IMG/VR virus record: IMGVR_UViG_3300042448_000816
Coordinates: 1 to 64,000 of that record
Origin: a virus
Reading direction: 5' to 3' (one strand)
DNA length: 64,000 nt
Position 1 is the first letter of the stretch; each line of letters opens with the position of its first letter. This document shows, one piece after another, positions 1 to 37,420 of this stretch. The notes under the pieces are model-generated. The model saw nothing but the letters and a program-made list of their open reading frames with translations, ran no database searches and was not told where the DNA came from. The translations under genes were made by a program, and so were the position numbers.

Positions 1-223
1 AATGGAGGGGTTCGAGACTGGCTACTGGACTCCAGAGTCATTAGACGAGTTTGCTTCCGACCTTCTTGAGGAGGCTTGACAAGTCCCCTTCGGGGGGGGG
101 CGGCCCCCTGTGGATAACCTGTGCAGATCTTTGTTATGAAGTTGTTATGAAACCCCCCGAAAATCTGCCACAAATGTCGGTAGGGTGTGATAGGGTTTTA
201 GTAATCAGATGAAAGGAAACAAA

Positions 224-1060
224 ATGATACTAATTCAGGAAGTGATTTGGGCAGACGACCCAATGTTTGACGGAGAAGTTTACCTAAGCGAAAAGGAGAT
301 TGACTAATGGACAAGATGTGTGTTTATTGCGAAAGTGTTTATTCACCAGACACGATTGTTTGCCACTTTTGTAATGAGTATGACGGTCTAATGGAATTGG
401 ATAAAGCCATTGACTACCTAAACCTAGACCCTAACGACTTTTTATAAATGTCGGTAGGGTATGCTAAGTTGGAACTAACGAAAGGAAATGAAATGGAAAA
501 AGTAGAAACATTGGGAACTAGGGACTTGGTTGAGCTTGTAAAGGCAAAGACTGGTCTAACCGACATTGGCGGTTATTCTTATGCCCTGACCCTTGCTTGG
601 GAATTGGCAGACAACAAACTAAAGGCTAAGATTGTAAGACTAATTGAGGAGGACAACTAATGGAAACTTTAGAAGAGCGTTTTGATAACACGCTAGATGA
701 AGTTTATCCTATTTACATAATGGGACAAACATCATTCAGACCTTCAGAAATTCTAAAACAATGCGACCCTATCGCATACCGAATTAGTTTGTCAGAGTTT
801 GAGGAATTTTTTGGAGATGAAGATGACAACTAACGAATTGGAAATGTTGATTTATCAAATTGACCTAATGCTAACGGAAGATGTTGGCGAACTATTTACA
901 ACACCAGAGGAGAAATAAAATGGACTATCTTGTAATTGGAGTTATTGCTCTAGCCCTAATGATTGTTTTTGTTGGAACTCAACTAATGGCAATTTTGTTT
1001 TTGATGTCGGAAAACGAGAAGCTACAAGAAGAAGCAGAAAAAAACTTTCCACCGTTTTGA
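224..1060 (+). CDS. Chain of six micro-ORFs (224-307, 307-447, 493-660, 660-833, 823-918, 920-1060), putative early proteins of unknown function
   Basis: Translated by hand. Stop/start coupling (TAATG) and GAAAGGA SD sites; 307-447 has CxxC..CxxC; 920-1060 has a hydrophobic N-terminus. Confidence 0.6.
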
Positions 1061-1216
1061 TTTGACAAAGCCCCAGAAATGGGGGGCGGCATTTTATTGT
1101 AGATTTGTCAAGTGTTTTAAGAAGTGTTTTAAGATCTCCCCAAAAATTCCTCGTAGTTTTTAGTTGACAATGTCGGTGGGTAATGATAATCTTGTTTTAT
1201 CAACGAAAGGAACCCA

Positions 1217-1738
1217 ATGAACAGTTACTTTGAGATTTACCTAGACTTTGCTAAGAAGGCAAACTTTGGACAAGTGGAGCAAGCAAGTAAGTGGTATCTG
1301 GATGCAGAACGTGTTGCAGCAGAAGTTGCACGTAACCTAGACACTACTCTAGAAGTTGGTGCAAGTATTGTTAGTGCATTCTCACCTAGAGAGCGTTGGA
1401 CTAACAACGTTACTAAGGCGATTAGCTTTTCACTTGGTAATCGCATTCCTGGATTCAAAAACAACATGCTCATGGCTAACAATGCAATAGCCTTTGGGTA
1501 TGACGCTCTAAAGGGAATGAAGACTAATGCATTCGCCAGAGCTATTGCAGGAGACGAGAACGCTGTTGTGATTGACGTCTGGATGTTGAGAGCTGTTGGA
1601 ATTGAAAAGAAGACACCTAACCAAACTCAATACAAAGAATTGGCTAACGCTGTTACAAAAGTTGCTAATGAATTTGGAATGACACCTAGAGCAATGCAAG
1701 CCCTTATCTGGATTGTTGTTAGGGGTAGTGGTGAGTAG
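1217..1738 (+). CDS. Conserved phage protein of unknown function, possibly a DNA-interacting helical enzyme
   Basis: 173 aa with a WY..SP..W..N..K..AF..IDVWM pattern typical of a widespread phage family; GAAAGGAA SD and its own promoter. Confidence 0.6.
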   Translation: MNSYFEIYLDFAKKANFGQVEQASKWYLDAERVAAEVARNLDTTLEVGASIVSAFSPRERWTNNVTKAISFSLGNRIPGFKNNMLMANNAIAFGYDALKGMKTNAFARAIAGDENAVVIDVWMLRAVGIEKKTPNQTQYKELANAVTKVANEFGMTPRAMQALIWIVVRGSGE

Positions 1739-1913
1739 TGACGGCCTAGTATTTTTTGTGATAGCAGTTGTGATATTTTACTTTTTTATATATCAATAAC
1801 TTGACAGATCCCTCGAAAGAGGGTGCGGCCCGTTACCTAATTGTTATAAACTATTTTATGAAGGAGTGTTTTATTCCCCCGAAATGTCGGAGGGTAATGC
1901 TAAGATGAGTAGT

Positions 1914-3009
1914 ATGTTGGGAAAGAGAAACGAAGCCAGAAGAAAAGCTGAGTCTAAAGAATTATTTAGACAGCTAATGAAGTCGCCACACCTTGTCCAA
2001 CAGTCCAAGCAACACAAGCTAACAAGAAGCGAACAGAAAAGGAAGGCAATAAATGACGGATACTAGAAGCTTTTACAGTTGCGATGACTGTGAGTATTGG
2101 TTTACCGAGAAGCCACGCTACAGCTATGACCTCAAGAATGTCTGTGGCAGATGTTATGCTATTCATGCTAACCACCCAACAACTAGAAAGGCAGCTCATG
2201 TTTGAGAATGTAATCAACGAAGAGGCTATTGAAGCCCTAACCGAAGACCAAATTGATACCCTATTGGCAATGTTTGAGAAGGCAGGATACTAATGGACGA
2301 ACAGGCAATTGAGATTAGAGAAGCTTGGGCAGAATACCTAGCTAACCCTGAAGACTATACCTTGGAAGATATTGAAGAGATATTCCAAGACCGAGACCCT
2401 TTTGAGTTTATCTAATGTTAGGACAACTAAGCGTTCACTTTTGTGAAGTGTGTTGTGAGTTTGGTATGGTGTCGGTAGTCAATGGTAAACTAATGGTTCA
2501 GTATTGTGATTGTGAAGTAGAAACAGTAGAAGGAGAATAGCAATGGGAATGATGACAGCAATGGGAATTGCCGAAACAGAAGTATCACTAGAGCAACAGA
2601 TAGCTTGGCACTTGGCAGGTAATCACTATCCACCAATTCCAAAAGCAATGGTTCCAGTTTGTATTGAAGCTATTGACGCTTATTGGGAGATGGACTATGA
2701 CAGACTAATCCAATTACCAACTGATGGACTAGACCGTAATGGAGAGCCATTCCAAATTAGATGGCGTGATGGTTCAGACAAAGCTCCAGCTCACGCAATT
2801 ATTGAACACGCTCACCTAGACGCTTGGCTAGTTGATGACTATGAAGAAGAAGAGGAAGACTAATGGCGTATCTAACTAACACTTGGTATGTTGAGTATCA
2901 AGATGGATCGATTGAGCCCGTTGCTAATCTGGCTACTGCCAGGCACTTGGTGATGTCTAATGTTGCTATTAGAATTATAGACATAAACAGGATGTTAGCA
3001 ACACACTAA
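1914..3009 (+). CDS. Chain of small ORFs (1914-2066, 2053-2205, 2198-2293, 2293-2415, 2415-2540, 2543-2863, 2863-3009)
   Basis: Translated by hand; coupled stops and starts. 2053-2205 and 2415-2540 are Cys-rich; 2543-2863 matches the ORF track. Confidence 0.6.
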
Positions 3010-3203
3010 GCAATAAACTTGACAGGTACCCCGAAAGGGGGCCGCACCACCTTTGACCCCAAAAGTCAAGTTTAAGAAGATAACGATTTTTCCCCCAAAT
3101 CGTTATAAATAAATGGTCGTAAACACTTGATAATGTCGGTGGTCTTTGCTACAATGGGGGTATCAACAAAAGTTGGTAAAAATCAAATAGAAAGAAGCAG
3201 AAA

Positions 3204-3356
3204 ATGGAAAACACTCTAACTGTTGGCTCACAGTTCACAACCGCCAAGAGCAAGGTCTCTGGCATTATTCAGGAAGTCGTAGAAAACAAGAACGGCACTT
3301 TCCGTGTTCGTCTTGATGTAGCTGGTCAGCCACGCTGGACAACTGTAATCAAGTAA
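3204..3356 (+). CDS. Small hypothetical protein (MENTLTVGSQFTTAKSKV..., 50 aa)
   Basis: Open frame directly downstream of the promoter at 3127-3155. Confidence 0.65.
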   Translation: MENTLTVGSQFTTAKSKVSGIIQEVVENKNGTFRVRLDVAGQPRWTTVIK

Positions 3357-3380
3357 TCTCCACTCCTAAAACTGACGAAA

Positions 3381-3408
3381 ACTGCTGGGTATCAGTCTAA
3401 ACTACCCA
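3381..3408 (+). ncRNA. H-type pseudoknot repeat, copy 1
   Basis: ACTG-CT-GGGTA-T-CAGT-CTAAAC-TACCC. Confidence 0.75.
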
Positions 3409-3485
3409 CCCATAAATGTCGGTGGTATCCGATACAATAAGCAAGTAAACAAATAACCCTAACAAAGAAAAGGAAGCAATAAACT

Positions 3486-3932
3486 ATGGCAAGAACGCTG
3501 TCAGTAAAAATCCCAACAAGCAAACTAATCGCAGACATAGAAGCGTCTATCGCAAAGATTGACGAAGATGTTGAGGCGTATGCTGGATTGCGTAAGCAGT
3601 ATGAGCTAGATGTCAAAAAGTATCAAGATGACCTAGTTGCTCACGCTATCAAGGCACTATCAGACCCAAGCAACATTGGAACAGAATACGGAAGTCTGGT
3701 TCGTCTTAGCACAAATCACTATCGTAATGATGTGTCTGTTGAGTTTGACCCAGAGGGACTAGGTTTCCCAAAGAAGCCAGAAGAGCCAGTCAAGCCAAAC
3801 GACAAAACTCATTTTGGTAGAGAATACATCTCTCGTAAGGAATTGCTAACTCGCAATCTCCGTATCCTGAAGATGACAACCCAAGAGGAAGTATCAGCAA
3901 GTTCTTACTCTGCTGTTATTGACCTTATCTAA
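3486..3932 (+). CDS. Hypothetical coiled-coil protein
   Basis: 148-aa ORF with SD, downstream of box promoter 3416. Confidence 0.75.
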   Translation: MARTLSVKIPTSKLIADIEASIAKIDEDVEAYAGLRKQYELDVKKYQDDLVAHAIKALSDPSNIGTEYGSLVRLSTNHYRNDVSVEFDPEGLGFPKKPEEPVKPNDKTHFGREYISRKELLTRNLRILKMTTQEEVSASSYSAVIDLI

Positions 3933-3973
3933 CTTAGGGAAATACCCCTGCCTAGCAGGTTCAACGCCCGAAG

Positions 3974-4000
3974 CAACCTGAGCAAGTTGTAAAACTGCTT
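3974..4000 (+). ncRNA. H-type pseudoknot repeat, copy 2
   Basis: CAAC-CT-GAGCA-A-GTTG-TAAAAC-TGCTT. Confidence 0.75.
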
Positions 4001-4232
4001 CCACAAGTTGGCACAAATACTGAGTCTGTAAAGACCTAAAGCTGAAGCCAACTTTTCCCTGTGAAGTGATCTGGATAGATTGCTGGTAGCAGGGAAAAAG
4101 TGGGGCGGCCCTCCAGGCCACCCACATACCATTTACGAAGTCAATTAAGAATCTCCCAAAAATTTTCCCAAATAGTATTGATAATGTCGGTGGTTAGTAG
4201 TAAAATGGAAGCAACCAAGGAAAGGAATAATC

Positions 4233-4931
4233 ATGGCGTATGATGAAATCAAAAATGTAGGATACGTGTCCTATGACGGAAACTATGGTGAGCAAGCAGA
4301 CTTGCTTATCTTTGATAGCAATTCCCTTACCCCCCAGCAATGGGAAACCCTAGGTGAGGTAAACGACAACAGCAGGTATGAATACGTTGAAGCTATCTTC
4401 AATGGCAAAGACTTATCAGAATGGGAGCAGTAATGCCTAGATACTACGTAAAGATGAGAATTGACTTTGATGGAGAGATTGAAGCAGACTCAATGCAAGA
4501 AGCAGAACAGTTAGCTTACACCTCTTGGGGAGACAGCGTGACTGATGACATATCATATGATGGTGTCTACAGCATAGACCTTGAAGAGATTGAAGATGAA
4601 GAAGAAGATGAGGACGAAGAGTAATGTCGGTAGGTCTTGGTAAAATTGAAGAAAGAAAGGAAACTATGAAAAGCTGGCAAGTAGAGTATTCTGCTACCTA
4701 TTGGGTAAACGCAGAAACCGAAGATGAGGCAATTGAGCTGGGTATGGAGAAGCATTCCGAATTACCAGACGGAGATTGGAACGCCTTTATTGACCCCTAT
4801 GATAGCAACAACTTCAATACCCTTGGAGAAAAGTAATGGAACACGAATGCTATGGATACATAGACTTATTCAACATCAGCAATAACAAGAATATCAAGTG
4901 TGCTGAATGTGGAAAAGAGTTGGGAACCTGA
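4233..4931 (+). CDS. Four small ORFs (4233-4433, 4433-4624, 4666-4836, 4836-4931)
   Basis: Coupled ORFs. 4433 and 4666 share a (V/I)xAxSxxEAxxxA-like pattern also seen at 7319 and 7688. Confidence 0.65.
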
Positions 4932-5030
4932 TGTCGGTGGGTGACCTTATAATGATAGAGTGTCCTAGGCACGAAGGCAATTTCGATTGCACACCATTCT
5001 GCAATATATGTGAAGGAGAACAGGAATACA

Positions 5031-5543
5031 ATGGGAACTAGAGGACTAACTAAAGTAATCAAGAACGACAAAGTAGTTGTAGCACAGTATGGCCAATGGG
5101 ACCACTACCCAAGTGGACAAGGTCTAACAGCCCTAAGATTTTTGAGGGATGAGACTAACGTAGAGAAGCTAGACAAAGGTCTTTACTGGCTCTATGAAAC
5201 CACTGATGAAGACGTAGAGGAGACACTTGATAGAACTGGTGATAACTTTGCAACTGCTTATCCTAGTCTTACTAGAGATACAGGTGCAGGCATTCTCGAA
5301 CTCATTGCTAATGCTAAAGGTGCCTTGCCAGTCGTCTTGAAGACTGATTTTGAAAACGATGAACTATTTTGTGAGGGTGTATTTACAGTAGACCTAGACA
5401 AGAAAAGATTCATAACAAAAACTGATTTAGGTATAACTACATTGCCACTTGATTCACTAATAAACGTTAGTGATGAAATGTATCTGGAGCAGACAAGGTG
5501 CCCAGTACATGGATATCAAAAAAATGAAACAGCTGTAGCCTAA
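5031..5543 (+). CDS. Conserved phage protein of the MGTR...YxxWDxYP type
   Basis: N-terminal MGTRG and QYGQWDHYPSG motifs. Confidence 0.7.
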   Translation: MGTRGLTKVIKNDKVVVAQYGQWDHYPSGQGLTALRFLRDETNVEKLDKGLYWLYETTDEDVEETLDRTGDNFATAYPSLTRDTGAGILELIANAKGALPVVLKTDFENDELFCEGVFTVDLDKKRFITKTDLGITTLPLDSLINVSDEMYLEQTRCPVHGYQKNETAVA

Positions 5544-5583
5544 GCATGTTGGCCTAACCTTACTTCCTTTCTGTTAGGTCAAC

Positions 5584-5611
5584 CGTCCTGGACATGACGT
5601 CAAACTGTCCA
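5584..5611 (+). ncRNA. H-type pseudoknot repeat, copy 3
   Basis: CGTC-CT-GGACA-T-GACG-TCAAAC-TGTCC. Confidence 0.75.
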
Positions 5612-5768
5612 CCGTCTGGGCCGCACCCCATCCCTGGCCAAAAGTCAAGTCCTTTACGATCTATTTACGAAGACCCCGAAAAATCTCCCGAAAAATAGTC
5701 TTGACAAATGTCAGTGGTTCGTGTGATAATAGTCTTATCAAATCAAACACTAATGAAAGGTAATACCA

Positions 5769-6782
5769 ATGGCACATTTGCTAGAATCAGTAAACGGAGA
5801 AACCGCTTTCGCTTCCCTTCGTGAGCCAGCTTGGCACGGATTGGGAACAGTCTTCACTGAGGAAGTATCCACAGCCAAAATGCTAGAGTTGGCTAAACTA
5901 AATAAATGGGACGTTCGTCTTGAAGATGTAGCAATTCCAGCAGGCTTTGAGAGTGATAAGTCTTATTCATTCGTGACTAGGACTAACCCATTTGACACAA
6001 CCAAGAATGATGTTCTTGGTGTTGTTGGTGAGCGTTATGTTCCTCTCCAGAATGAAGACCTATTTGACTTTGCCGACAACTTGCTAGACAACGGTGGTCG
6101 TTGGGAGACAGCAGGTTCAATCAAGGGTGGTCGTGTTGTCTTTGGTGCCTTGGCATTGGAGAGAGAGACCGTCATTGACCCGAATGGTGTTGGAGATAAA
6201 GTAAACACTTATCTTCTAGTAAACACTAGCCACGACGGCTCTGTTGCTATTCAGGCTAGTATTACTCCCGTTCGTGTTGTATGTGCCAACACCCTCAACC
6301 TAGCATTAGGTAATCGTGGTCGTGGTGGTTCTGTCAAGCAGTCATTCAAGATTAGACACACTCAGACAGCAAGTGGTAAAGTTCAGATTGCTCGTGAGGC
6401 ATTGGGCTTGGCTAACGCATACATTGACGAGTTTAGTCTAATGGCAAACAAGATGATTCAGACTGAGGTTAGCAAAAAGAAGTTTGATGAAATTGTTTCG
6501 GCATTGTATCCACAGCCAAAAGAAGATAGCAAGAAAGTATCAGCAACCAAGTATGCTAACAAGATTGACCTTATCAACGAAATCTATGTTGGTGATTTCA
6601 ATAACACAATTACTGGAACAGCTTGGGGTGTGGCTAACGCTCTCACCGAAAGACTAGACTGGTATCGTTCGGGTCGTAAGGGCAAGACAGAATCTATCTT
6701 GGCTTCTGCTTCTGGCTTTGACCCAATCACAAACGCAGAGAAGAACAGAATCTTCAAGGCGGTTCAGTTGGCAACAGCCTAA
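5769..6782 (+). CDS. DUF932 family (TIGR03299-like) phage/plasmid protein
   Basis: PAWHGLG, Y.PLQN, ETAGS..GG, NTSHDGS, TPVRVVCANTL, RHT and GTAWG motifs. Confidence 0.9.
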   Translation: MAHLLESVNGETAFASLREPAWHGLGTVFTEEVSTAKMLELAKLNKWDVRLEDVAIPAGFESDKSYSFVTRTNPFDTTKNDVLGVVGERYVPLQNEDLFDFADNLLDNGGRWETAGSIKGGRVVFGALALERETVIDPNGVGDKVNTYLLVNTSHDGSVAIQASITPVRVVCANTLNLALGNRGRGGSVKQSFKIRHTQTASGKVQIAREALGLANAYIDEFSLMANKMIQTEVSKKKFDEIVSALYPQPKEDSKKVSATKYANKIDLINEIYVGDFNNTITGTAWGVANALTERLDWYRSGRKGKTESILASASGFDPITNAEKNRIFKAVQLATA

Positions 6783-6789
6783 AAACAAA

Positions 6790-6816
6790 ACACCTGAGCA
6801 AGTGTCAAAACTGCTC
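6790..6816 (+). ncRNA. H-type pseudoknot repeat, copy 4
   Basis: ACAC-CT-GAGCA-A-GTGT-CAAAAC-TGCTC. Confidence 0.75.
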
Positions 6817-6939
6817 CCCAAAATGGGGTGCGGCTACTTTACATAATAAAATAATTAACAACAAAAATAACTTTAAGAAGATCCAAAATATTTTCCCGAA
6901 TTCCTTGATAATGTCGGAGGGTATCAGTATAATATACTC

Positions 6940-7332
6940 ATGAACGTAAAAATGATTGATACAGAAAAAGCAGAAATCCTTCTAGGCATGACTAAAGAAG
7001 GGCATTGGGTTGCTCCTCATGCTGTTGTAAATACCCCCAAAGGTTTAGCAACCGTATGCTATGAAGGTGTAGGTTGGTTTGAATTCGAGGGTATGTACAG
7101 TATCCTTGTTGGAGACGACTATAGAGATTGGACTAAGCTAATTACTAAAAAGGAATTACTTAGTATTATCTCTAATGAGGAGACCACTCTTCATAAAATG
7201 ATTGACCCACATAACGATAGGACTAGATCCAATCTGTTTACTTGGGAGAATCAAATCAAGAATACCCCACAAAATGTCGTAGGGTCAGACTATAATGGAA
7301 CCGAGAGAGAGGTGGCAAATGCCATTGTATAA
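6940..7332 (+). CDS. Hypothetical protein, probably leaderless
   Basis: 130-aa ORF; ATG lies 6 nt after TATAAT (6928-6933). Confidence 0.65.
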   Translation: MNVKMIDTEKAEILLGMTKEGHWVAPHAVVNTPKGLATVCYEGVGWFEFEGMYSILVGDDYRDWTKLITKKELLSIISNEETTLHKMIDPHNDRTRSNLFTWENQIKNTPQNVVGSDYNGTEREVANAIV

Positions 7333-7498
7333 AGTCCAAAGAGAATACATCAACTGGGAAGAAATTACTATAGAAGCTGATTCTAAGGAAGAAGCTTTGT
7401 CTAAAGCAGAAGATGACGAGGTTGTTTGGGAGTATTCTCATGATGTTAGTACATACTACTACACTGGAGAGATGTGGGTAGGAGAAGCAGATGAGTAA
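7319..7498 (+). CDS. Small acidic hypothetical protein
   Basis: GAGGTGG SD before the ATG at 7319; downstream of box promoter 7274. Confidence 0.65.
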   Translation: MPLYKVQREYINWEEITIEADSKEEALSKAEDDEVVWEYSHDVSTYYYTGEMWVGEADE

Positions 7499-7687
7499 GA
7501 AGCATGTTCATTACTATGCATATGGAGCATGTGCATTCTGTGGCAAGACAGTAAACAAAGGACTAGGCGTAGACCTATACAAAGGGAAGGTAGTCTAGTG
7601 GAGCTTATTATAATAATACTAACAATACTACTGGTAGCTGGTAGTCCAAACATGTTCTTTTCAAACGACAAAAGGTGGTAGGTTATA

Positions 7688-8206
7688 ATGCACGTATTGC
7701 AATGGATAGCTGTTCAGGCTGAGAACGATGACGAAGCAATGAAGTTGGTTGAGGGCAAGCTACAAGCTGAGTTAGGTAGTAATGAGTTTGCTACTAACTC
7801 TTGGTTTGATTGGTTTGTAATTGGTGGGGGTAGATTCAATCCTGACCAAGACCCATATCAATCTTCATCTAATATGATTATCTCTAGTAAAGATAGGGAT
7901 AAGTTTGATAGAACTATCGTTGATGTAATGACATCTAGAGTTGATGAGTTCAATAGCTACCGAAAATCTTTCGAGGCTAAAGACCTAGACCTAAGTGCTA
8001 AGTTAGATAGTTATACAGGTGAGATGAGATATGACTTTGAGTTGTATGAGCTGAAGAAGATGATTGACATGTATCAAGGGGAATGGGATATGAACTCCTA
8101 CTTCTTTGATATTCACCATGAGAGCACCAACGTAAATCATATGCAAAATGACCTTGACTTGAACCCCGATATGTGGTATCTTGTTCCTGTAGACTTTCAC
8201 TTTTAG
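7688..8206 (+). CDS. Hypothetical protein (WFDWFVIGGGRF...VPVDFHF type)
   Basis: 172-aa ORF with a motif pattern typical of phage proteins. Confidence 0.75.
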   Translation: MHVLQWIAVQAENDDEAMKLVEGKLQAELGSNEFATNSWFDWFVIGGGRFNPDQDPYQSSSNMIISSKDRDKFDRTIVDVMTSRVDEFNSYRKSFEAKDLDLSAKLDSYTGEMRYDFELYELKKMIDMYQGEWDMNSYFFDIHHESTNVNHMQNDLDLNPDMWYLVPVDFHF

Positions 8207-8528
8207 GGAGGAGAGACAAATGACAATGAACCAACTAATGGAGCAAATCTTGGCAATCCTGCCAAACGCTGTATTTGGAGAAGAAGACAACGGAGAAATC
8301 CTAATCGCAACAGGACTAGTTGAAGTTGATGCTGGTAGCAATCTAGTAGAGCTAGACTAATAAGATGAATATAGATACAAGATATGTAACAGGTAACCTA
8401 GCCAAAGACATACAGTTCCTAAAAGATAATCTAACTATGGAGGATGCTGATATGTTCAGAGCTCAGGTGCAGTTTATAATGTCGGTAGGTAATGATACAA
8501 TCAAACCCAACGAACAGGAGAAACCCCA

Positions 8529-8933
8529 ATGACAGTAAAACCCATTGAGATACCAGAACCCACATATACAGAATACCAAGGTTGGGACAAGTGGGCAGAG
8601 AAGTTCAAGCCTATCCACAATCACTTTAGCAATGACCCAGACCAAGATATGTTTGAGACCTATGGTGAAGAAGTAGACTATGTCACCAAGGCAGACAACA
8701 AGTATATCTGGACTTGGATACAAGGAGATATGTCTGACCTTATTGTGGCAGGGTATCACTATGTAAATAGATTAGGATACTACATTACCGAAGTTCCTTG
8801 GGACGACGAGTATGACTATGCCTTGTTATCTGTTGAGATAGAGTGTGAGTGCTATGACGAAGAGACTGGTGAAGGTAAGGACGAATGTCCTGAATGTGAA
8901 GGATATGGATTGGTGACTAAGTATGTTGACTAG
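8529..8933 (+). CDS. Hypothetical protein with C-terminal Cys cluster
   Basis: FETYGEE and GYHYVNRLGYYITE motifs; CECY...CPEC at the C-terminus. Confidence 0.75.
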   Translation: MTVKPIEIPEPTYTEYQGWDKWAEKFKPIHNHFSNDPDQDMFETYGEEVDYVTKADNKYIWTWIQGDMSDLIVAGYHYVNRLGYYITEVPWDDEYDYALLSVEIECECYDEETGEGKDECPECEGYGLVTKYVD

Positions 8934-9270
8934 AAGCAAGGCTGATAGCCTAACCCCGTACGTGTACGACCTGAATATATTTCAAAGAGAGTTGCTAGAC
9001 TCATCTGGCCAGTACAGGCATGCTGGTCCGTGGTACATTCATATCTATGAATATAACGACGGTAACGTTGAAGAGCTCAGCAACCCTATACAGCTAACCT
9101 GGGATGAGTATAATAGTCTTATTGCTAATGACCCATACTTCCAAGACCATGAGCCAGACCTATGGTATGGCCTAGAGGGGTTTATGTTTGAGAAGTGGGA
9201 TGTCATGTCAGATGGACTGAAGCTGGTATTTGAAAGTCTACCAAAGTATAAAGAAGAAGTGTTGTTTTAA
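8923..9270 (+). CDS. Hypothetical protein
   Basis: 115-aa ORF overlapping the previous gene. Confidence 0.7.
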   Translation: MLTRSKADSLTPYVYDLNIFQRELLDSSGQYRHAGPWYIHIYEYNDGNVEELSNPIQLTWDEYNSLIANDPYFQDHEPDLWYGLEGFMFEKWDVMSDGLKLVFESLPKYKEEVLF

Positions 9271-9440
9271 TAGCTTGGGAGCGATCCTACTAAAATAGCG
9301 GGAAGGTTGTGGGTAACACATACTTCACTGCACTGATGCTAGGTTAATGGGTTTTCCTAGCCAATCAGTAAATGACGGGGAGAGGGTACCAGAATTGGGT
9401 CTTGTATCCTCTCCCTGTATCTGGTATAATGAGAGGACTT

Positions 9441-9650
9441 ATGAGAAGAATACAAACTAGAGAAGAAAAGGCAGCAACTAAAATAGCAACAATCGTAAAC
9501 GACATAACATTGGATTTAGATTTTGTCGGTATTTATCTGGCAAGAACAGCACCAACAATTTCATACAATCGTTTACTACTAATAGCAGAATCAGCAGAGT
9601 TTGAGAAAGAGAGTGTAGATGTCAGAAACAGCCACAACCCCCTTTTCTAA
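9441..9650 (+). CDS. Hypothetical protein
   Basis: Start moved to 9441, downstream of TGGTATAAT (9422-9430). Confidence 0.6.
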   Translation: MRRIQTREEKAATKIATIVNDITLDLDFVGIYLARTAPTISYNRLLLIAESAEFEKESVDVRNSHNPLF

Positions 9651-9918
9651 TAGGGTTGCTATCCTAGCAGAATTATGGATAGACTTCCGAGAAGAGCCAG
9701 GGTATACAGATTTGATAGAGTATGGAGATTTGGGATTCCCACTTGCCTATGCTATTTACAACGAGATAGCCAAGCCAACAGAGCTAGCAGAAAAATACAT
9801 TGATGAGCTTTGGGACTTGCTCCTTGCTGGATTAGACCTTGAGGATTCTGGGGATTTTGAAATCCTAGGTAACTTGTTTGACGCTTCTGAAACTCGTGGA
9901 AAGTTTATTCAAGACTAG
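9619..9918 (+). CDS. Hypothetical acidic protein; last gene of the + strand block
   Basis: 99-aa ORF with DLGFPLAYAI motif. Confidence 0.7.
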   Translation: MSETATTPFSNRVAILAELWIDFREEPGYTDLIEYGDLGFPLAYAIYNEIAKPTELAEKYIDELWDLLLAGLDLEDSGDFEILGNLFDASETRGKFIQD

Positions 9919-9932
9919 CCCCCTCCTCCATC

Positions 9933-9955
9933 CTGTCCTAGCAATAGGGCAGTTT
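9933..9955 (+). terminator. Hairpin, probable terminator
   Basis: CTGTCCTA-GCAA-TAGGGCAG followed by TTT, after the last + gene. Confidence 0.55.
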
Positions 9956-10008
9956 GGGGCCGCACCATATCTTTTACCAAATGTCAAATACTATATCAAA
10001 TAATAGTA

Positions 10009-10320
10009 TTAAGAACATCCAAATATTTTTCCCAGATTTTGGGTATTACGATCTCCAAATAATATTTCCCAAATGATTGTATATCTACTTATAGGGATAT
10101 TGGTGTATCTTTTATATACCCTGGAAAAATAGGCAAATAACCAAATAGTAATTATCCTATTTTTATATACCCATTACGATCCCCAAATATAATTTCCCAG
10201 AAAAGGTACATTGTATTTGTCTATAGGTATTACGATCCCTCTTCTAAAAATCCCCGAAAGTTTTGCAGCGAAGCTGCGGCCCGAAGGGCCAGGGTATTAC
10301 GAAGATACCCAAATACCCCT
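10009..10320 (+). repeat. Direct repeats TTA(C/A)GA(T/A) followed by C- and A/T-tracts
   Basis: Copies at 10009, 10046, 10174, 10230 and 10297. Confidence 0.7.
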
Positions 10321-10595
10321 AGTATAATATACACAAATACTTCTTGGTGGATATCAGCAAATAAGGTATATGTTTTATCAAATTTGATATAAGTTATTTG
10401 ATATTTGTTAACAAAATAGATATAATATCGTATGTTTTTTATGGTGGAAACCTACAAAGAATATAACAATTTGATAACATATTTGGATATCAGGATTTGA
10501 CAATTTGATCAAAGTATGGTATAGGGGAGCCTTCCGCAAAAAAAGATTAAGAACGCCCTCTATAAATGGGCCCAATTACCCATATACAAATTGAC

Positions 10596-10669
10596 TTATC
10601 CACACATAATGATATACAAATAGGATTAGTAAGATATATTATCCACAGATGTGTATAACCTGTGCATAA
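10596..10669. promoter_or_regulatory. Cluster of four DnaA boxes (TTATNCACA)
   Basis: TTATCCACA at 10596 and 10639; TGTGTATAA at 10650; TGTGCATAA at 10661. Confidence 0.75.
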
Positions 10670-10859
10670 CTTTGGGGGTATTTAGATCAACCCAATGGGG
10701 CTATTGGGGATATGAGGATATCGGGATTTGGTTATTTACGAATAGAATTAATCAGATATGCTGCTATGAAGCAAGCTATCCCAAAGATGATTTCCATGTA
10801 TTCTTTCTATAGTGTTTGTTTATACTAGGGATTACGATGGAGCTTCTCATACCCCGAAA

Positions 10860-11308
10860 TTATTGAGCTACTGTTCCTGGAACTATAATCCTATATTCTT
10901 TACGTGATCTAGACAAAGACTTAAAGCAAGCAGAATGGACTGATATGTCTGTCCTAAGCTTCTTCTTGATATGCTTTCTTCTATAGGTCACTGTAGGCTC
11001 TTGGAGCTCTTTATTACAGTACCAGCAAGGATTACGATCCATTAGTTTTTATCCCTAAATTAGGACTTAGCCTGAGCCCTTTCGTTTCTTTGTCTAACGA
11101 TGTGGTCATACATATCTAGGTTCTCTGTAAGCTTCTTGTCTACCCAGTTTAATGCTCCATGGTTCTGAGCTAGATCAAAAATGGAGATGTCTCTGTCGTC
11201 ATACATATCCAATAGCTTTGCCATCTTCTTTTGAATGCTGTCAGCTAGAAATCCATATTCCTGATGATAGTCTGTGTTCATAACTTTCTTTTGTGCTTCT
11301 GTTGCCAT
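10860..11308 (-). CDS. Two small hypothetical ORFs (10860-11042, basic with CWYC; 11060-11308)
   Basis: ORF track; SD sites upstream. Confidence 0.55.
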
Positions 11309-14791: not shown

Positions 14792-15284
14792 CTATCTTTT
14801 TACTCTTTTAGGCTTTTTTGAATTAAGCTTCTTTAGCCAAGGCTTGTCTGCATACTTAGCCCATTCGTATACAAAGATACACAAAGCGATAAGAAACCCT
14901 AGGGATCCAGACTGTACGATGTAGTATGGTGTTGGGTCAATTAGGTAGGTGTCCCATGGGAATGTGTAGGCCACTACTGGCAAAGCAATAGCATTACCGA
15001 ATACTGCAGATATTACGATACTCTTGTAGATGTTCTTCAATTGTTCTCCTATTATTGTTCAGCCTATATTATAGTGCATTAGGCAGGGTAATGTCAAATC
15101 ATTCTTCTGACAGGTATTTCATAAATACCCTTAATATCTCAACGGTGTACTTCTCATACTCAATTTCAATCAGGGTATTCTCTTGATCTACCCTATGTAT
15201 CTTAATCTCTTTACCAAGATTAAATAAGATATTGTTTATCTCTTTTTCTAAGTCCACACTAAAGTATAGCAGATTAATAAACAT
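14792..15284 (-). CDS. Two small ORFs (14792-15040, membrane protein; 15099-15284)
   Basis: ORF track; two hydrophobic helices in the first. Confidence 0.5.
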
Positions 15285-17199: not shown

Positions 17200-17226
17200 A
17201 TAAACATTATACCACAGGTATTGTTA

Positions 17227-17254
17227 TAGGCCTTTTAGCAACATGCCTAGGTTG
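17227..17254 (-). ncRNA. H-type pseudoknot repeat, copy 5 (3' of Hsp20)
   Basis: Minus strand CAAC-CT-AGGCA-T-GTTG-CTAAAA-GGCCT-A, with one mismatch in stem 2. Confidence 0.65.
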
Positions 17255-17310
17255 TCTCCCCAGGTAGCGGTCCTCGGAAAATCAAGCTACCTAAAGGATA
17301 TCATCGTTTT

Positions 17311-22921: not shown

Positions 22922-23135
22922 TAGCATCCTCTTTCCAGTGTAGGTAGGACTTAATATATACCGCCGCATATGCGATAGCAGAAACAATAAAGCCATACTG
23001 CTCAGTAACTACTGCATAAACAATCCAAATTACTTCATTGAACAACAAAACAAACCAACCCCAAAGCGTTTTTCTTCCAACAAAGTAAATGCCTGCCACT
23101 CCAATAATGGCAAGACCCCACGACCAAAGCTCCAT
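22911..23135 (-). CDS. Small 3-TM PnuC/SemiSWEET-like membrane protein
   Basis: 74 aa; W.GW..N..WIVY..QYG..Y..W pattern. Confidence 0.6.
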   Translation of the reverse strand: MELWSWGLAIIGVAGIYFVGRKTLWGWFVLLFNEVIWIVYAVVTEQYGFIVSAIAYAAVYIKSYLHWKEDANVH

Positions 23136-23422
23136 TACTTATCCTCCATAGTCAGACTCTTCCAAGTTTCAGCCCACTGATCCTTGCTTCTGTGCTTTGA
23201 AAACTCTCTAGAAATTTTTCCATTCTCAAGAAAAATACCTCCCCAGACGCCCCACTCTTTTTGAGAAACCCCAACGGCGAAGCATTCTCTGGATACTGGA
23301 CATCCAGCACAGAGTTTGTCTATTGCAGGACGAAGGGCAAGATCTTCTTCATATTTATCAAAAAATAAATTTGAGTCAAAGCCTTTACAGGAGCCTTCGT
23401 CTTTCCACTCATGCCTTCCCAT
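23135..23422 (-). CDS. whiB: WhiB-family Fe-S transcription factor
   Basis: W....C, FF, CAGCPV..EC and GVWGG motifs. Confidence 0.92.
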   Translation of the reverse strand: MGRHEWKDEGSCKGFDSNLFFDKYEEDLALRPAIDKLCAGCPVSRECFAVGVSQKEWGVWGGIFLENGKISREFSKHRSKDQWAETWKSLTMEDK

Positions 23423-24393
23423 TAGCAACAATGCTTTCTGGAATAACCCAGCCATCAATACCAGGAACAAACCTTTCCTGGATTAGCCACTGTCCTTTAA
23501 TGCAAACACCATTAGGAGATGTTCTAGCCTTATCAGACTTGTAAGTTCTTACAACAGTCCAGCCGTCCCAGGAAAAACTTTTGTTTGATGAAACAAACTT
23601 TTCCATTTCGTCAATTGTTTTGATGACCATGATCTTTTCTTTCTTTATTTAATAGCGATAGATTCCGACTTTAGCATCTTTGCTTTCTGCATATGACACT
23701 ATATCCGACACTGCTTCTTTAGGCTTACTAAAGAATGCAAGGTAATCTATGCTATGTACGTTTTCTTTTATCCAGCTTGGTGGTACTCTTATCATTTTTA
23801 TTTTAATTCCCCGTGCTTTGAGACTTCTCTCAGAGACTCCAGAAAACTCCAGGGCCATAGAATTTATCTGTGCTGGACCTGCGGAATAGAGATAGAACTC
23901 TTTATCTTCATCTGGTAGATTTGAGAGGGCTACACCCATAGCTCGCAAGAATACTGGGTATAGGTCAAAAGCCTTTGTTCCCTGTATAGCCACGATCATT
24001 TTTGTTTCCCTCGTTCAAGACATCTACGATGTAGATTAACTTCTCTAATTGTACACCATTCATACCCATTGTGTCAACTCTCCTAGCTGTGTCTTCTTTT
24101 ACGATACCGTCTTCCTGATCCGCAATAAACAGGGCATTTTCTTTAATCCAATAAGCTTCTTTATCTATAAAAAGAACCTTAACGTTCATGACTTTTTCAC
24201 AATTAGCAGATTGGGTTGGCTTTTTGATAGGATGAAACATTGATTCTGGAATGTTGTATTTTATAATTTCATGTATGTGAGTTTGGCTATAGCGTACACT
24301 ATTACCAAAATCTTTTGAAATCATCTTGGGAGCAATTAATCTAAAGAATAGAAACATTCCGATTGCTACTAAAAACCCTAAAAGATAGTCCAC
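23409..24393 (-). CDS. Three hypothetical ORFs (23409-23630; 23649-23999, possibly SLOG-like; 23965-24393, membrane-anchored)
   Basis: ORF track; coupled co-directional genes. Confidence 0.65.
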
Positions 24394-24416: not shown

Positions 24417-24821
24417 CTAAGAGTTTTTTGCTCTAGCCTTAGCCAGTACTTCGAAGTCTTTAACCTTGGTGTCTCCAAGATATCCCCAGGCGTAACCTTT
24501 TTCAATCATTTCCATGTTAATCGAGTTGCCTTCACCGTCAAGGTATAGCCATCCAAGAATGCGTCCATACTTTTCAGACGAATCCATCTTTTCAGTTTTA
24601 ATAACAACAGTCTTTGCTGCCTTGATACGATCTGCCAAATACTTCTTGGACTCTAGGCCCAGGGTTTTCTCTGCCTTATCCTTTGTACGACTTTCTGGGG
24701 TATCAATGCCAGCCAACCTTACACGTGAAGTAAAGCTAATATCAAAACCTAAATCAATAACAACGTCAATGGTGTCTCCATCTACTACGTTGACAACTTG
24801 TTTTACATAATACTCAAACAT
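24417..24821 (-). CDS. Thermonuclease (staphylococcal nuclease family)
   Basis: VVDGDT, RVRLAGIDTPE, EKYGRIL and N..MI.KGYA motifs. Confidence 0.93.
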   Translation of the reverse strand: MFEYYVKQVVNVVDGDTIDVVIDLGFDISFTSRVRLAGIDTPESRTKDKAEKTLGLESKKYLADRIKAAKTVVIKTEKMDSSEKYGRILGWLYLDGEGNSINMEMIEKGYAWGYLGDTKVKDFEVLAKARAKNS

Positions 24822-25061
24822 TTAATCATCCGCCTTTAGTCTATTCTCAATAAGTCTTTCTCGTTCGTCAACAACCTCTATGGCAAACTTCATCATTTTG
24901 TCATACCCCACAGCATTTGCCATAATTTCTTCATAGTGGTGTGCACAAAACAACAGGTCTCCATCTAGTCCTTTAGCCCAAATATAGGCCTGTGCATTGC
25001 ATCCAGAATCACAACGATCGTTGGCGTTTAACAGCCACTCTTTTTCTTTAGTTTCTACCAC
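24822..25061 (-). CDS. Small Zn-binding hypothetical protein
   Basis: DRCD.C...LLFCAHH motif. Confidence 0.7.
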   Translation of the reverse strand: MVETKEKEWLLNANDRCDSGCNAQAYIWAKGLDGDLLFCAHHYEEIMANAVGYDKMMKFAIEVVDERERLIENRLKADD

Positions 25062-25237
25062 TATTTGTCCGTTCTATAGAATCCGCTACCATTAAACGTA
25101 ACGGCTCCTAATGAGTATACACGAGCAAGGTTCAAATTGCAAGTTTCACATTCGTAGCCAGGATCTTCTTCATTGATTCCTCGGCTAAACGTATAACGTT
25201 CTTTACAATCTGAACACTCATACTCGTATATTGGCAT
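25061..25237 (-). CDS. FmdB-like zinc-ribbon protein (58 aa, below the ORF-track cutoff)
   Basis: Hand translation: MPIYEYECSDC...CETC...FNGSGFYRTDK. Confidence 0.8.
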   Translation of the reverse strand: MPIYEYECSDCKERYTFSRGINEEDPGYECETCNLNLARVYSLGAVTFNGSGFYRTDK

Positions 25238-25248
25238 TTTTTATAAGT

Positions 25249-26013
25249 TTAGCCTAGTTTAGACCAGGTTAGAGGACCAACAACACCGTCTGCAGTTAGC
25301 TTGTGCTTCTTTTGAAAAGCAACAACGGCAGCGTGAGTCTTAGGCCCGAATGGACCGTTTGGGCTTACGCCTAGCTTGTTTTGTAGGTACACAACAGCTG
25401 GAGTTTGTGGCTCCCCCTGCTTCAAAAGCTTACCTCCGTATGGCATTGTTCCGTTTTTACTTACTTTGCCGTGCACTGGAGCTGGAGCAGCTGGAGCATC
25501 GACAGGAGTTTCTTGCTTAGCAGTTCCCTTAATTCCCTCTAGCTTCATAAGAGCGTCAAAGAAAGCTGTTGGTTCGATAAAGTTCAAGCCAGTGGCACTC
25601 CATTCATATTTCTTGCCCTTGTGCAATTCCCAGTGCAAGTGCTTGCCAGTTGACATACCAGTTGTCCCCATCTTGCCTAGCGGTGTGCCAGCTTCGATCT
25701 TTTGACCAACCTTAACTTTGATGCTGTCGTCTTGCATGTGAGCAAAAAGTGTTGTGTAGTGCTCTCCATTGATTACATGATGGACCATTACAAAATTACC
25801 AAATCCGCCACCAGCGGCAGTTGACTTTTTGGCCTCTGTTACAACACCGTCAAAAGGTGCTTCGATCCAGCAGGGCTCGTGTGGTGACCAAATATCTGTT
25901 CCGTTGTGGTGCTTAGCCACATTTGTTACTGGGTGGATACGGTTACCCATGATGCTGGTGATTTTCCAGTCTTTGCCTTGTACCCCGTCAATTGCCTGTT
26001 GTGCTCTTGCCAT
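25249..26013 (-). CDS. Endolysin: M23 peptidase plus peptidoglycan-binding domain
   Basis: HNGTD, FAHM and STGKHLHWE motifs; C-terminal FQKKHKLTADGVVGPLTW. Confidence 0.92.
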   Translation of the reverse strand: MARAQQAIDGVQGKDWKITSIMGNRIHPVTNVAKHHNGTDIWSPHEPCWIEAPFDGVVTEAKKSTAAGGGFGNFVMVHHVINGEHYTTLFAHMQDDSIKVKVGQKIEAGTPLGKMGTTGMSTGKHLHWELHKGKKYEWSATGLNFIEPTAFFDALMKLEGIKGTAKQETPVDAPAAPAPVHGKVSKNGTMPYGGKLLKQGEPQTPAVVYLQNKLGVSPNGPFGPKTHAAVVAFQKKHKLTADGVVGPLTWSKLG

Positions 26014-29602: not shown

Positions 29603-30991
29603 TTATGCTCCGTTCCTTATATTTACTGTTGTTGCTATACCGCTTATAGAAATTGCTGATAGTGCTGCTTGCACTGCAACAATTGCTGTTACTACTACTT
29701 TTTCTGAGTCTTCTCTAACTTCTGGACTCATGTCTGCCCCCGCATTTCCAAGAAAGTTAACAAGCTCTGTTGCTCCACCAAGAACATCTCCAAGAAGCGG
29801 GATGGCTGCTAAAGCCTCATCTAGGACAATGTCATCTGCAGAAGCTGCTAAGAACAAGGCATCAAGGGCTTGTTCATATTCTTCAGAGCCTGGCTCTGCT
29901 GTCTCAAATACTTCTAGGGCTGCTTCAATAAGTGCATCTACCTGAGCTTCAGAAAGATCCGTTGCTTCAATTTGATCTAAGTCTATTTCTAAAAGTTCTT
30001 CTGAAGAAATGTCTACTGGTAAATCTTCAGCAGATGTGATAGAATCTTCTTCTGGTTCTATAATAGAAGGAGTTGGTTCAGGTGAAGGTTCTACAGATTC
30101 TTCAGGTTCTTCAGTTGGCGGGATTGCTTGTTCTGGTTCCTCTGGCTGTATTACTGGCGGCACTATTGGCTCAGGATCCTGAGAGGGTTCTGGTTCTGGG
30201 ACTACTGGGTTGGTTGGCGGCACGACAGGTTCAACGGGCACGACAGGGCTTGGAGTAGGTTCAGGCGTAGGCTCTGGGGTAGGCTCTGGCGTTGGTGAAG
30301 GGCTTGGGGTAGGCTCAGGTGTTGCACTTGGCTCAGGTGTTGCACTTGGCTCAGGGGTAGGGCTAGGAGCTGGGGGAACTACGGGGGCTGGTGCTGGTGG
30401 TTCAGTTATTGTTTGAATGTTTAAAGGAAAAACTTCTCCACCCTGAGTATAACGAACACCATATCTAGCACCTGCTGGAGCACTAGAGCTTACTTGGTAA
30501 GTAGGTGTCCAAGTATGGTTTACTGGATTTACTTCTGCAATTAATCTTATATAAACTGGGCTTCCAGAAGACTGGCCCCACGGCAAAACTTTCCAATCAA
30601 CACAGATAGAAGTTGCTGTTGATCCATACCTTACGTATAAATCTTGTCCAAGGCCCCATCCTGGATTCCACCCACCCTGATTCATTTGATTCGGAAAAGC
30701 GTGGTAGTCCCAAGAAGCTATGGAGATTGATGGAGTTTGAGGATAGTCCCAAAACGTAAAGTCACCTTGACCAAAAGTCATTGTTCCCTTTGGACTTACA
30801 TAGATGTTACCATTATATACAGTGCCACCAAATTCTAGTGGGGTATTTAGGTTCATTAAGAATGCTTGATCGCCACCATTAACTTGATAGGTGTCACACA
30901 CTGCAGTTGTAGATGCTTTAGCAGCTGCTGGCCAAAGCAATGATACAAACATTATAGCTACGGCCACAGCAAAATATAGGGTTTTTTTAAT
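29603..30991 (-). CDS. Exported, membrane-anchored protein with a Pro/Glu/Thr-rich stalk; probable AUU start
   Basis: In-frame ATT 5 nt after AAGGAG gives a [13 protein letters not shown] signal peptide; beta-rich domain, PEPT repeats, hydrophobic C-terminus. Confidence 0.75.
30170..30400 (-). repeat. Coding low-complexity repeats (PEPSAT x2, PEPT, PVVP)
   Basis: 18-bp tandem GGCTCAGGTGTTGCACTT x2 plus degenerate 12-bp units. Confidence 0.8.
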
Positions 30992-31047
30992 TTTTTCTCC
31001 TTGTTAGCAGGGTTAGTTCTAACAAGACTATTATAACATTTTATTTT

Positions 31048-36843: not shown

Positions 36844-37268
36844 TTCTTTATCCTATTCTTAATTGCTGTTGTTGAGACATGCCTGGTGTAAGGAACATAG
36901 ACCAGGCCAATGCCTCTGGCATCTAGCCAGTCTTGACTAAAGCTCATCTGGCTGTAATAATCTTTTTTTGCCCAGTCAGAACCGATGACTATATAGTCAG
37001 GATCTGAAATCTGAATAGAAATTTTTGAATCGGTTCCCCCCAGGTTTGGTACTACGGAATCTACGTACTGACAAGCTTCTAACACTGCTTTTCTTTCTTC
37101 GTATGTACAAGCTGGATTTTTTCCTTTATATTCAAAGATAAACTCATCAGTGTTTAGCGAAACAATAACTGTTCCATCTAATCCAGCAATATCCTTGCAC
37201 CTTTTTAAAAGATTTACATGGCCAGAATGAAAGAGGTCAAAGGTTCCCCCTGTATATACAACGCTCAT
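36840..37268 (-). CDS. TagD-like cytidylyltransferase
   Basis: GGTFDLFHSGH (HxGH), GSDW and STT.IK motifs. Confidence 0.92.
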   Translation of the reverse strand: MSVVYTGGTFDLFHSGHVNLLKRCKDIAGLDGTVIVSLNTDEFIFEYKGKNPACTYEERKAVLEACQYVDSVVPNLGGTDSKISIQISDPDYIVIGSDWAKKDYYSQMSFSQDWLDARGIGLVYVPYTRHVSTTAIKNRIKN

Positions 37269-37420
37269 CTTCTACTTTTCCTTAGTCCAAACTTTGCCAG
37301 ATAGACATATATAGTCTCTACACTTGTTCCACACTCTTTAGCGATGTCTTCAGGACTCTTTTTGTCTAGCCAGTACCTCTTCTTAAGCCAGGCCTCGCTG
37401 GTGTATAGCTTTGCTGCCAT
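37265..37420 (-). CDS. Small HTH DNA-binding protein
   Basis: WL..RY...SPEDIAKECG.S.ETIY..L.KFGL. Confidence 0.75.
   Translation of the reverse strand: MAAKLYTSEAWLKKRYWLDKKSPEDIAKECGTSVETIYVYLAKFGLRKSRR

Follow-up and report, generated by a model that had tools for sequence, protein, structure and literature searches.

The first 64 kb of the 112,370-bp virus record IMGVR_UViG_3300042448_000816 (64,000 nucleotides; the window) carry a repeated element of ~50 bp at the boundaries of early gene units in what is apparently a lytic siphophage. Its core is a GC-rich near-palindrome of 9–11 bp, GGKGC-S-GCMCC, in which two arms enclose a central S, and which we refer to as the word. The word is found in ~11 copies in total, in the early region only, and at the corresponding boundaries of close relatives it is replaced as a unit by another sequence. 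The reading that we favour, with confidence somewhat short of even, is that a lineage-specific DNA-binding factor uses the word as its operator and would thereby insulate the early units or shut them off, as judged from sequence comparison. The two ends of the record overlap by 218 bp (window 1–218 corresponds to genome 112,153–112,370), giving a genome of 112,152 bp, and the two copies of the overlap disagree by one base, in a G run. Coordinates refer to the window unless marked as genome.

A symmetric element at early gene boundaries

A first-pass annotation had described promoter-shaped elements, TTGACW-N17-KGCGGC, with a GC-rich hexamer at the −10 position. This pattern has six matches in the window against 0.00 in 100 shuffles, and all six sites listed there are present, three on the + strand (76, 1062 and 1801) and three on the − strand (3069, 5648 and 9987). 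The spacing of exactly 17 nt is confirmed except at site 76, where it is 16 or 17, because the G run has nine G in one assembly copy and eight in the second. Beyond the record junction, the + strand has three extra copies (genome 111049, spacing 16; 111525, spacing 16; 111934, spacing 15). The GC part extends past the hexamer: GGKGCGGC has 10 copies compared with 1.07 in shuffles (maximum 5), and the exact copies are all intergenic and all within the + strand block of small genes that runs from genome ~110,900 round to 10,300. The unpaired KGCGGC copies reported at 4104, 6829 and 10275 all exist, the last being part of a separate tandem hairpin pair and not a member of the set. The proposed location between genes at the ends of gene units is borne out for the early boundaries, where the element mostly starts at or just past the stop codon of the preceding unit's last gene.

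The element had also been placed on both strands. The matches on each strand are real, whereas separate reversed units are not; the apparent two-strand pattern arises because the element is symmetric, the near-palindromic word being framed by a box on either side (roughly TTGACA-N14/15-word-N13/15-TGTCAA). The TTGACW of the − strand is the conserved right-hand box, WGTCAAG, which most units have 13–15 bp from the word. Of the 11 early sites, 9 have TTGACA or TTGACT on one side or both. The apparent orientation of the word depends on which half has the T (eight copies one way, three the other). The idea of a bipartite signal at the DNA level is thereby supported, and so is the promoter-like geometry, in that the word occupies the −10 position relative to a −35-like hexamer. 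The elements within the window are as follows.

76–107, + strand: boundary element 4; TTGACA at 76–81 includes the stop codon of the upstream small open reading frame (ORF); hairpin CCCC-TTCG-GGGG
97–117, + strand: right part of element 4; word GGGGCGGCC(CC) at 97–107; DnaA box TGTGGATAA at 109–117
1062–1111, + strand: element with both flanks; TTGACA at 1062–1067; hairpin CCCCA-GAA-TGGGG; word GGGGCGGCA at 1083–1091; TGTCAA at 1106–1111
1801–1830, + strand: TTGACA at 1801–1806; hairpin CCCTC-GAAA-GAGGG; word GGTGCGGCC at 1822–1830, then GTTAC/GTTAT repeats
3019–3069: symmetric element; TTGACA at 3019–3024; hairpin CCCC-GAAA-GGGG at 3029–3040; AGTCAA at 3064–3069
3040–3048: word GGCCGCACC of the preceding element, T-carrying half on the − strand, both TTGACA-type boxes 15 bp away
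4102–4123: word GGGGCGGCC at 4102–4110 and, four bases on, a degenerate inverted copy GGCCACCC; no TTGACA box
5586–5648: element before the DUF932 gene; hairpin TGGACA...TGTCCA in the 3′ untranslated region; word GGCCGCACC at 5619–5627; right box AGTCAA at 5643–5648
6816–6835, + strand: hairpin CCCCA-AAA-TGGGG; word GGTGCGGCT at 6827–6835; no TTGACA box
9933–9987: last element of the early region; 8-bp hairpin with GCAA loop at 9933–9952; word GGCCGCACC at 9958–9966; right box TGTCAA at 9982–9987

The order of parts was derived from an alignment of ten full intergenic units of ~170 bp each. From left to right there are a GGYGTGTCGA box (optional), TTGACA (optional), a hairpin of 4–5 bp, the word GGKGCGGCC, TGTCAAG or AGTCAAG after 13–15 bp (optional), TTAWGAAG, TCCCCSAAA and, 58–97 bp downstream of the word, a promoter of the PafBC type. 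TTAWGAAG / TTACGA(W) and (A)TCCCCSAAA, between word and promoter, are kept in all units and across phage lineages (window 134–6905), and a GGCGTGTCG box is found upstream of some −35 boxes. The PafBC-dependent promoters of actinobacteria have the consensus tGTCgg(N10)tA(N3)T (PMC8635444). The early promoters of the phage, (TTGAYA)ATGTCGGTRGG-N7-TAnnnT, match it, often with no −35 box, and 17 of them lie on the + strand of the early region.

In the window, + strand, 13 early promoters spanning 174–8501: 174, 448, 1170, 1884, 3133, 3416, 4184, 4624, 4931, 5708, 6911, 7274 and 8479
Beyond the window: genome 111162, 111643 and 112029, + strand; genome ~110,935–110,957, − strand

The distances between word and promoter do not keep to the helical repeat, a point against a face-specific activator. 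The first copy of the word, at genome 111049, is exceptional, as it lies between the leftward promoter at ~110,935–110,957 and the rightward promoter at 111162. With no operon upstream of it, this element cannot be solely a terminator.

The hairpin stands directly before the word and carries a GAAA, TTCG or similar loop (GNRA- or UUCG-type) on the transcribed strand. Its stems vary by compensating substitutions between orthologous and paralogous units (CCCTC/GAGGG, GCTCC/GGAGC, and CCCCA/TGGGG versus CCCC/GGGG); these changes were read by eye, the ungapped alignment leaving the stems out of register for a formal covariation count. On the + strand the loop always reads in the GAAA or TTCG sense, while the word is found in either orientation; the hairpin therefore looks like an RNA-level feature and the word like a DNA-level one. 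The hairpin in the 3′ untranslated region ahead of the DUF932 unit (5586–5612, loop TGACGTNAAAC) is kept in L026, L029, G001, G005 and G003, and its stems covary (TGGACA/TGTCCA, TGGCCA/TGGCCA, GAGC/GCTC).

The word is exchanged as a unit between relatives

Viral contigs were scanned for the promoter motif. The scan returned more than 90 stretches, and the ATGTCGG motif is multi-copy and strand-biased across these IMG/VR contigs, many of them carrying several copies biased to one strand. More than 70 related contigs have a GC-rich word in the corresponding place, in about ten lineage-dependent types, most of which have palindromic arms. Besides the word of the phage, these are GCCCWGGGC, GGTGCGCCCC, TGCGGGC, GGCGCC, GGTCGGGC, GGGGCACC, CTGCGCAG, GGCGGGCC, TTGGGCAA and TTGCGCAA. 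A GGTGCGCC type is present in L099, L026 and L050, and for two other genomes the words GGCGCACC (described as a ‘dead −10’) and GGGACGTC have been reported.

Two syntenic relatives, G001 (57 kb) and G005, have early proteins that are mostly 42–97% identical to those of the phage. Seven boundaries are comparable, and at each of them the flanking sequences can be aligned base for base, the replacement being limited to the 7–11 bp of the word; in the unit orthologous to that at 1062, for instance, both have CCCTGGGGC. The degenerate inverted second copy (4115, in the unit before the ORF at 4233) is swapped in G001 together with the first copy. A swap of just the word at every one of them points to a sequence-specific reader and not to mere GC-richness. 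Three other phages, G003 (complete, 112,245 bp), G002 and G004, have the same word as the phage, yet their proteins are only 45–75% identical, so that the type of word does not track overall relatedness. Within one phage the word is invariant although the sequence on either side varies, and this invariance, together with the replacement of the word as a whole at every boundary of a close relative, is hard to explain without such a reader.

The promoter-like frame is less widespread than the word. In lineages X, Y, Z1, Z3 and Z7, 47 of 149 word sides have a TTGACW at a distance of 13–17 nt, as against none with a reversed-hexamer control; conservation of the spacing in homologous regions, a point raised by the first-pass annotation, thus holds at gaps of 13–17. 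In L093, L061 and L099 the leftmost element consists of a −35 box and a PafBC box, with the word in place of the −10. Six other lineages, including the largest, never have TTGACW near the word, and the word is therefore the universal part, the frame being an accessory of a subclade.

Restriction-site avoidance and the choice of word

GCGC, CCGG and CGCG are all missing from the genome, where 61, 82 and 27.5 copies, respectively, would be expected. Across the family (~70 related loci) CCGG and CGCG are nearly always at zero, and GCGC, GGCC, GATC and AGCT fall to zero in particular lineages. No word type conflicts with the set of 4-bp palindromes avoided by its phage: GCGC-free phages have words without GCGC, GGCC-free phages have words without GGCC, and phages that avoid both use GGTCGGGC, GGGGCACC or TTGGGCAA. 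The word of the phage equals the GGTGC|GCCCC word with one additional G, which removes GCGC. From this compatibility, restriction pressure probably drives part of the changes of word between lineages, an indication that regulatory sites, and not coding sequence alone, are shaped by host restriction systems. The change between the phage and G005 is not explained in this way, both avoiding the same sites. The word as a restriction or methylation site was itself rejected, since GCSGC is not avoided (56 observed, 47 expected).

A putative operator and the search for its reader

Of the three options offered by the first-pass annotation, a site for a phage protein or a roadblock insulating modules fits best, and an alternative-holoenzyme promoter is unsupported. 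In the model that we tentatively prefer, the element would mark the boundaries of early (host-takeover) transcription units. The hairpin would act in RNA, forming the 3′ end of the transcript from upstream or stabilising it, and the word would act in DNA, as the operator of a putative, probably dimeric, lineage-specific factor that is either phage-encoded or brought in with the virion. By occupying all ~11 boundaries, the factor would stop transcription of one unit from running into the next, shut off the early region later in infection, or both. The TTGACA boxes 13–15 bp on either side are possible contacts for region 4 of sigma-A or for a second domain of the factor, and the word types would shift between lineages partly through the need to avoid the 4-bp palindromes restricted by the host. 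The features that fit a dispersed operator best are the palindromic arms, the confinement to early intergenic spaces, the position of one copy between divergent promoters and a promoter distance that is not phased.

Candidate readers were sought by comparing the phage with G001 (close, different word) and G003 (distant, same word) and looking for outliers. The outliers were a block of an SNase-like nuclease and an M23 endolysin. As a reader, the SNase-like nuclease was rejected: a phage with a different word has it at 92% identity, and four complete genomes lack it. A small helix-turn-helix (HTH) protein (37265–37420) was rejected as well, its recognition helix being invariant in phages with at least five other word types. 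The basic early protein DUF7178 and a widespread 148-aa family with an N-terminus like a ribbon-helix-helix (RHH) do not sort by word type, nor does the WhiB protein.

Several points weigh against an operator. Some 110 proteins were scanned against Pfam or PHROG, with no clear HTH, RHH, ParB, methylase or HNH match and no clear DNA-binding, methylase or nuclease candidate beyond the small HTH and the SNase-like protein; the SNase-like protein, WhiB, DUF7178 and the 148-aa early family do not sort by word type. The comparison with G001 spans only ~40% of the genome. Some word types (GGTCGGGC, TGCGGGC) are non-palindromic, and the exact −10 placement of the word relative to TTGACA on both sides is unexplained by an operator model.

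If the word is an operator, abundant freshwater actinobacterial phages would run their host-takeover genes through a private, lineage-exchangeable DNA code, layered on promoters borrowed from the host DNA-damage activator PafBC. The boundary-wide swap between close relatives is a natural experiment that supplies matched sets of sites for finding the reader and shows how such a dispersed site changes along with the factor that reads it. As a mark of unit boundaries, the element also aids the annotation of early regions that are made almost wholly of orphan genes.

Alternative readings

Other readings of the element are not all mutually exclusive, and a role in recombination could be added to any of the others. 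One that we consider unlikely is a decoy with a dead −10: sigma-A polymerase, aided by PafBC in some relatives, would dock at TTGACA, fail to melt the word and remain parked, thereby insulating units, acting as a roadblock or storing polymerase. The word covers the −10 at 13–17 bp from the box, with the frequency given above; three sites share the upstream GGCGTGTCG box with real promoters, and the leftmost elements of L093, L061 and L099 have a −35, a full PafBC box and the word for a −10. However, a decoy would need no more than some GC sequence that resists melting, yet the word is constant within each phage and exchanged as a whole between close relatives, and six lineages have the word but no TTGACA box. 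Closed complexes are also short-lived and make poor roadblocks, which counts against a decoy.

Also unlikely is an element that acts wholly in RNA, the hairpin and the word (as a second tiny hairpin) forming a terminator, a 3′ stabiliser or a processing site. It would be recognised by an RNA-binding protein or a nuclease specific to the lineage, or the copies would pair with one another. The covarying stems and the stable tetraloops directly before the word are consistent with this. Several units fold better than shuffles (z −2.4 to −3.1, with −2.44 for the 1062 unit, −2.67 for the 3019 unit and −2.79 for the 9933 unit) and are closed by a TTGACA/TGTCAA stem. In Z2 phages a true hairpin has the word as its 3′ arm, and L016 and L035 have, after the hairpin, a T run that contains the word. 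On the other hand, some units are no stabler than shuffles (z = 0.47, 0.78), T-containing variants of the word fold poorly, GGUGCGGCCCC is mismatched and no transcript arrives from upstream at genome 111049. A GC-rich hybrid after the hairpin is the opposite of an intrinsic terminator: a T run is found only at site 1062, where it comes after the word, and canonical terminators are not enriched in 1–11000 (7 against 7.0 expected). The terminators of the late region are ordinary hairpins followed by T, without the word, and an Rfam search of 1–11000 gave no notable match.

Rather improbable in our view is a set of recombination junctions, that is, mobile cassettes like PeSL that would provide homology for shuffling small early genes, with the word kept uniform by short-patch conversion and no reader at all. 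A stem-loop and an early promoter between small orphan genes match the description of PeSL (PMC4122927), and gains and losses of genes relative to G001 and G005 abut the units, as with the ORF at 2863–3009 or the left box missing in G001. Against this, the hairpin and the spacers differ widely within the genome, so that conversion tracts would need to be of 7–11 bp, and orthologous units keep their own hairpin variants while the word changes. Chi-like sites, a further candidate, were excluded by the palindromy of the word and its fixed spacing to TTGACA.

We regard as very unlikely a new class of promoter, in which TTGACA would be read by sigma-A and the double-stranded GC word at −10 by an adaptor specific to the lineage, giving rightward transcripts and, from the inverted box, leftward antisense ones. 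The geometry is kept on either side of the word in five lineages, L093 and L061 have hybrid elements in which a PafBC box is followed by the word, and PafBC is itself a precedent for adaptor-mediated promoter recognition in actinobacteria (PMC8635444). If this were true, the word would be the −10 counterpart of the ‘sigma adaptation’ by PafBC and a private transcription code for each phage lineage. The element does have the hexamer close to TTGACA that sigma-70/sigma-A reads at −35, but at −10 it has KGCGGC or the lineage word, with no A at position 2 and no T at position 6. It has no TAnnnT and, in this phage, no tGTCgg box, both of which are found in the promoters 58–97 bp downstream; a good promoter is already present in every unit, there is no conserved start region after the word, and the word stands without TTGACA in six lineages. 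The searches found no adaptor, sigma factor or polymerase gene. A sigma factor, for which the first-pass annotation had suggested looking, did not appear, neither as region 2 nor as region 4: the profiles PF04542, PF04545 and PF00940 gave no match, a weak negative for PF00940, which gave no match in control genomes either, and PF08281 had a sole match of 15.8 bits, in a 66-aa HTH protein. No T7-like polymerase was matched in the genome in a search run without a positive control. The alternative-holoenzyme promoter is left with no support from these results, and hairpin promoters for a virion RNA polymerase, as in N4, were likewise rejected, the 3458-aa ORF being a tape measure and a T7-like polymerase being absent from the matches.

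Least probable is a lineage-specific nick or base modification of virion DNA, for example one exposing single-stranded DNA beside PafBC promoters on entry, a purely inferential idea in whose favour PafBC is reported to be switched on by single-stranded DNA (PMC11804915) and the words are short, GC-rich, restriction-site-like and change as nuclease or methylase specificities do, but in whose disfavour the protein scans found no nickase, HNH or methylase domain and the word is neither avoided nor enriched elsewhere in the genome in a way that would indicate an enzyme.

Comparison with known dispersed sites

A dispersed operator has several counterparts. The stoperators of Cluster A mycobacteriophages are asymmetric 13-mers, bound by the monomeric immunity repressor of temperate phages, that occur genome-wide with an orientation that follows transcription (PMC9283540, PMC6550527). 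Like stoperators of the L5 gp71 type, the word is short, has many copies in the short intergenic spaces of an actinobacteriophage, some of them −35-linked, differs in sequence between related phages and has the same proposed action on elongating polymerase. Unlike them, it is near-palindromic, confined to the early region and found in either orientation, in a phage that is apparently lytic; the many intergenic, lineage-specific copies are thus shared with stoperators, and a single orientation relative to transcription is not. Among the proteins compared, many of the small ones being uncharacterised, no candidate for a cognate repressor of the stoperator type co-varies with the word.

The KorB operators (OB) of IncP plasmids are palindromes of ~13 bp with a central S, present in about a dozen copies at variable distances from promoters and read by one dimeric protein. 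The word resembles them in the central S of its palindrome and in the about a dozen copies at many operons that one putative dimeric factor would serve. In contrast, KorB is a plasmid reader of the ParB family, and no ParB domain was found in the scanned phage proteins.

The PeSL cassettes of T4-type phages (PMC2839356, PMC4122927) share with the units a repeated stem-loop and an early promoter between small variable early genes, as well as gene gains and losses at the units, here a few differences from G001 and G005 that abut units and are given without statistics. By their descriptions, PeSL differ in having ordinary sigma-70 promoters, where those of the phage are of the PafBC type, and in having neither a lineage word nor framing −35-like boxes. 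Cluster O mycobacteriophages have 17-bp dyad repeats, TGTTCGG-N3-CCGAACA, at gene junctions (PMC4351075). These repeats are like the word in their invariant inverted-repeat arms, their variable centre and their tens of copies at the gene junctions of actinobacteriophages; unlike the word, they occur throughout the genome, have neither a hairpin nor −35-like boxes coupled to them and have no reported switch between close relatives. Compared with PafBC-dependent promoters, the real promoters of the units match the consensus and the boundary element keeps the PafBC box in some relatives, whereas the element itself has no TAnnnT and, in this phage, no tGTCgg. The element adds to the dispersed operators and boundary elements known from actinobacteriophages and T4-type phages, and is striking for its promoter-shaped frame and its restriction-constrained, lineage-specific word.

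The phage, its host and further features

The phage encodes DnaE, DnaB, a class II ribonucleotide reductase, terminase, RecA, a DnaG-type primase and a WhiB-family protein, and the 3458-aa ORF matches tape measure families. DnaE and the DUF932 protein are closest to those of Streptomyces BE-cluster phages (~55% identity). The WhiB-family protein, at 23135–23470 on the − strand, matches PF02467 (E = 6e-12) and is 92.6% identical in G001. The host is very probably an actinobacterium of low GC content, given the WhiB gene, the PafBC-type promoters and the BE-cluster phages as nearest cultured relatives; a cyanobacterial host, considered for the GATC-rich, HIP1-like strings in relatives, was dropped on the same evidence. 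Freshwater actinobacteria of low GC content are the most likely group. From the distribution of the ATGTCGG motif, a large group of phages appears to rely on PafBC of the host for the expression of its early genes.

Middle and late genes have extended −10 promoters of the TGnTATAAT type upstream, without an ATGTCGG box. Examples on the − strand are intergenic (window 15041–15098, 17200–17310 and 30968–31047; genome 69747–69800 and 100319–100421). The phage therefore has at least two promoter classes, one of the TGnTATAAT type and one of the PafBC type.

The 51-aa HTH protein (37265–37420, − strand) lies near the packaging genes, is 78–94% identical in eight other phages of the family and may be a small terminase-like protein or a conserved regulator. 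The SNase-like nuclease and M23 endolysin (24417–26013, − strand) are 88% and 58% identical to those of the distant G003, compared with 67% and 43% for the close G001, and the block looks like a recent mosaic exchange.

In the related Streptomyces phage Jay2Jay a DUF932 gene sits in the long terminal repeat, in two places in the record, and because the early region carries a DUF932 gene the whole early block may be a collapsed terminal repeat. The first 14 kb of Jay2Jay contain no PafBC-type promoters and were unusable for comparison. DnaA boxes (TGTGGATAA, TGTGTATAA) directly follow the word in two of the leftmost units (window 109–117; genome 111084–111106), and likewise in the leftmost units of L061, L026, L099, G002 and many Z2 phages. 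A cluster of DnaA boxes is also found at the non-coding end of the early region (window 10596–10670), and these boxes may represent a replication origin or a control point for DnaA.

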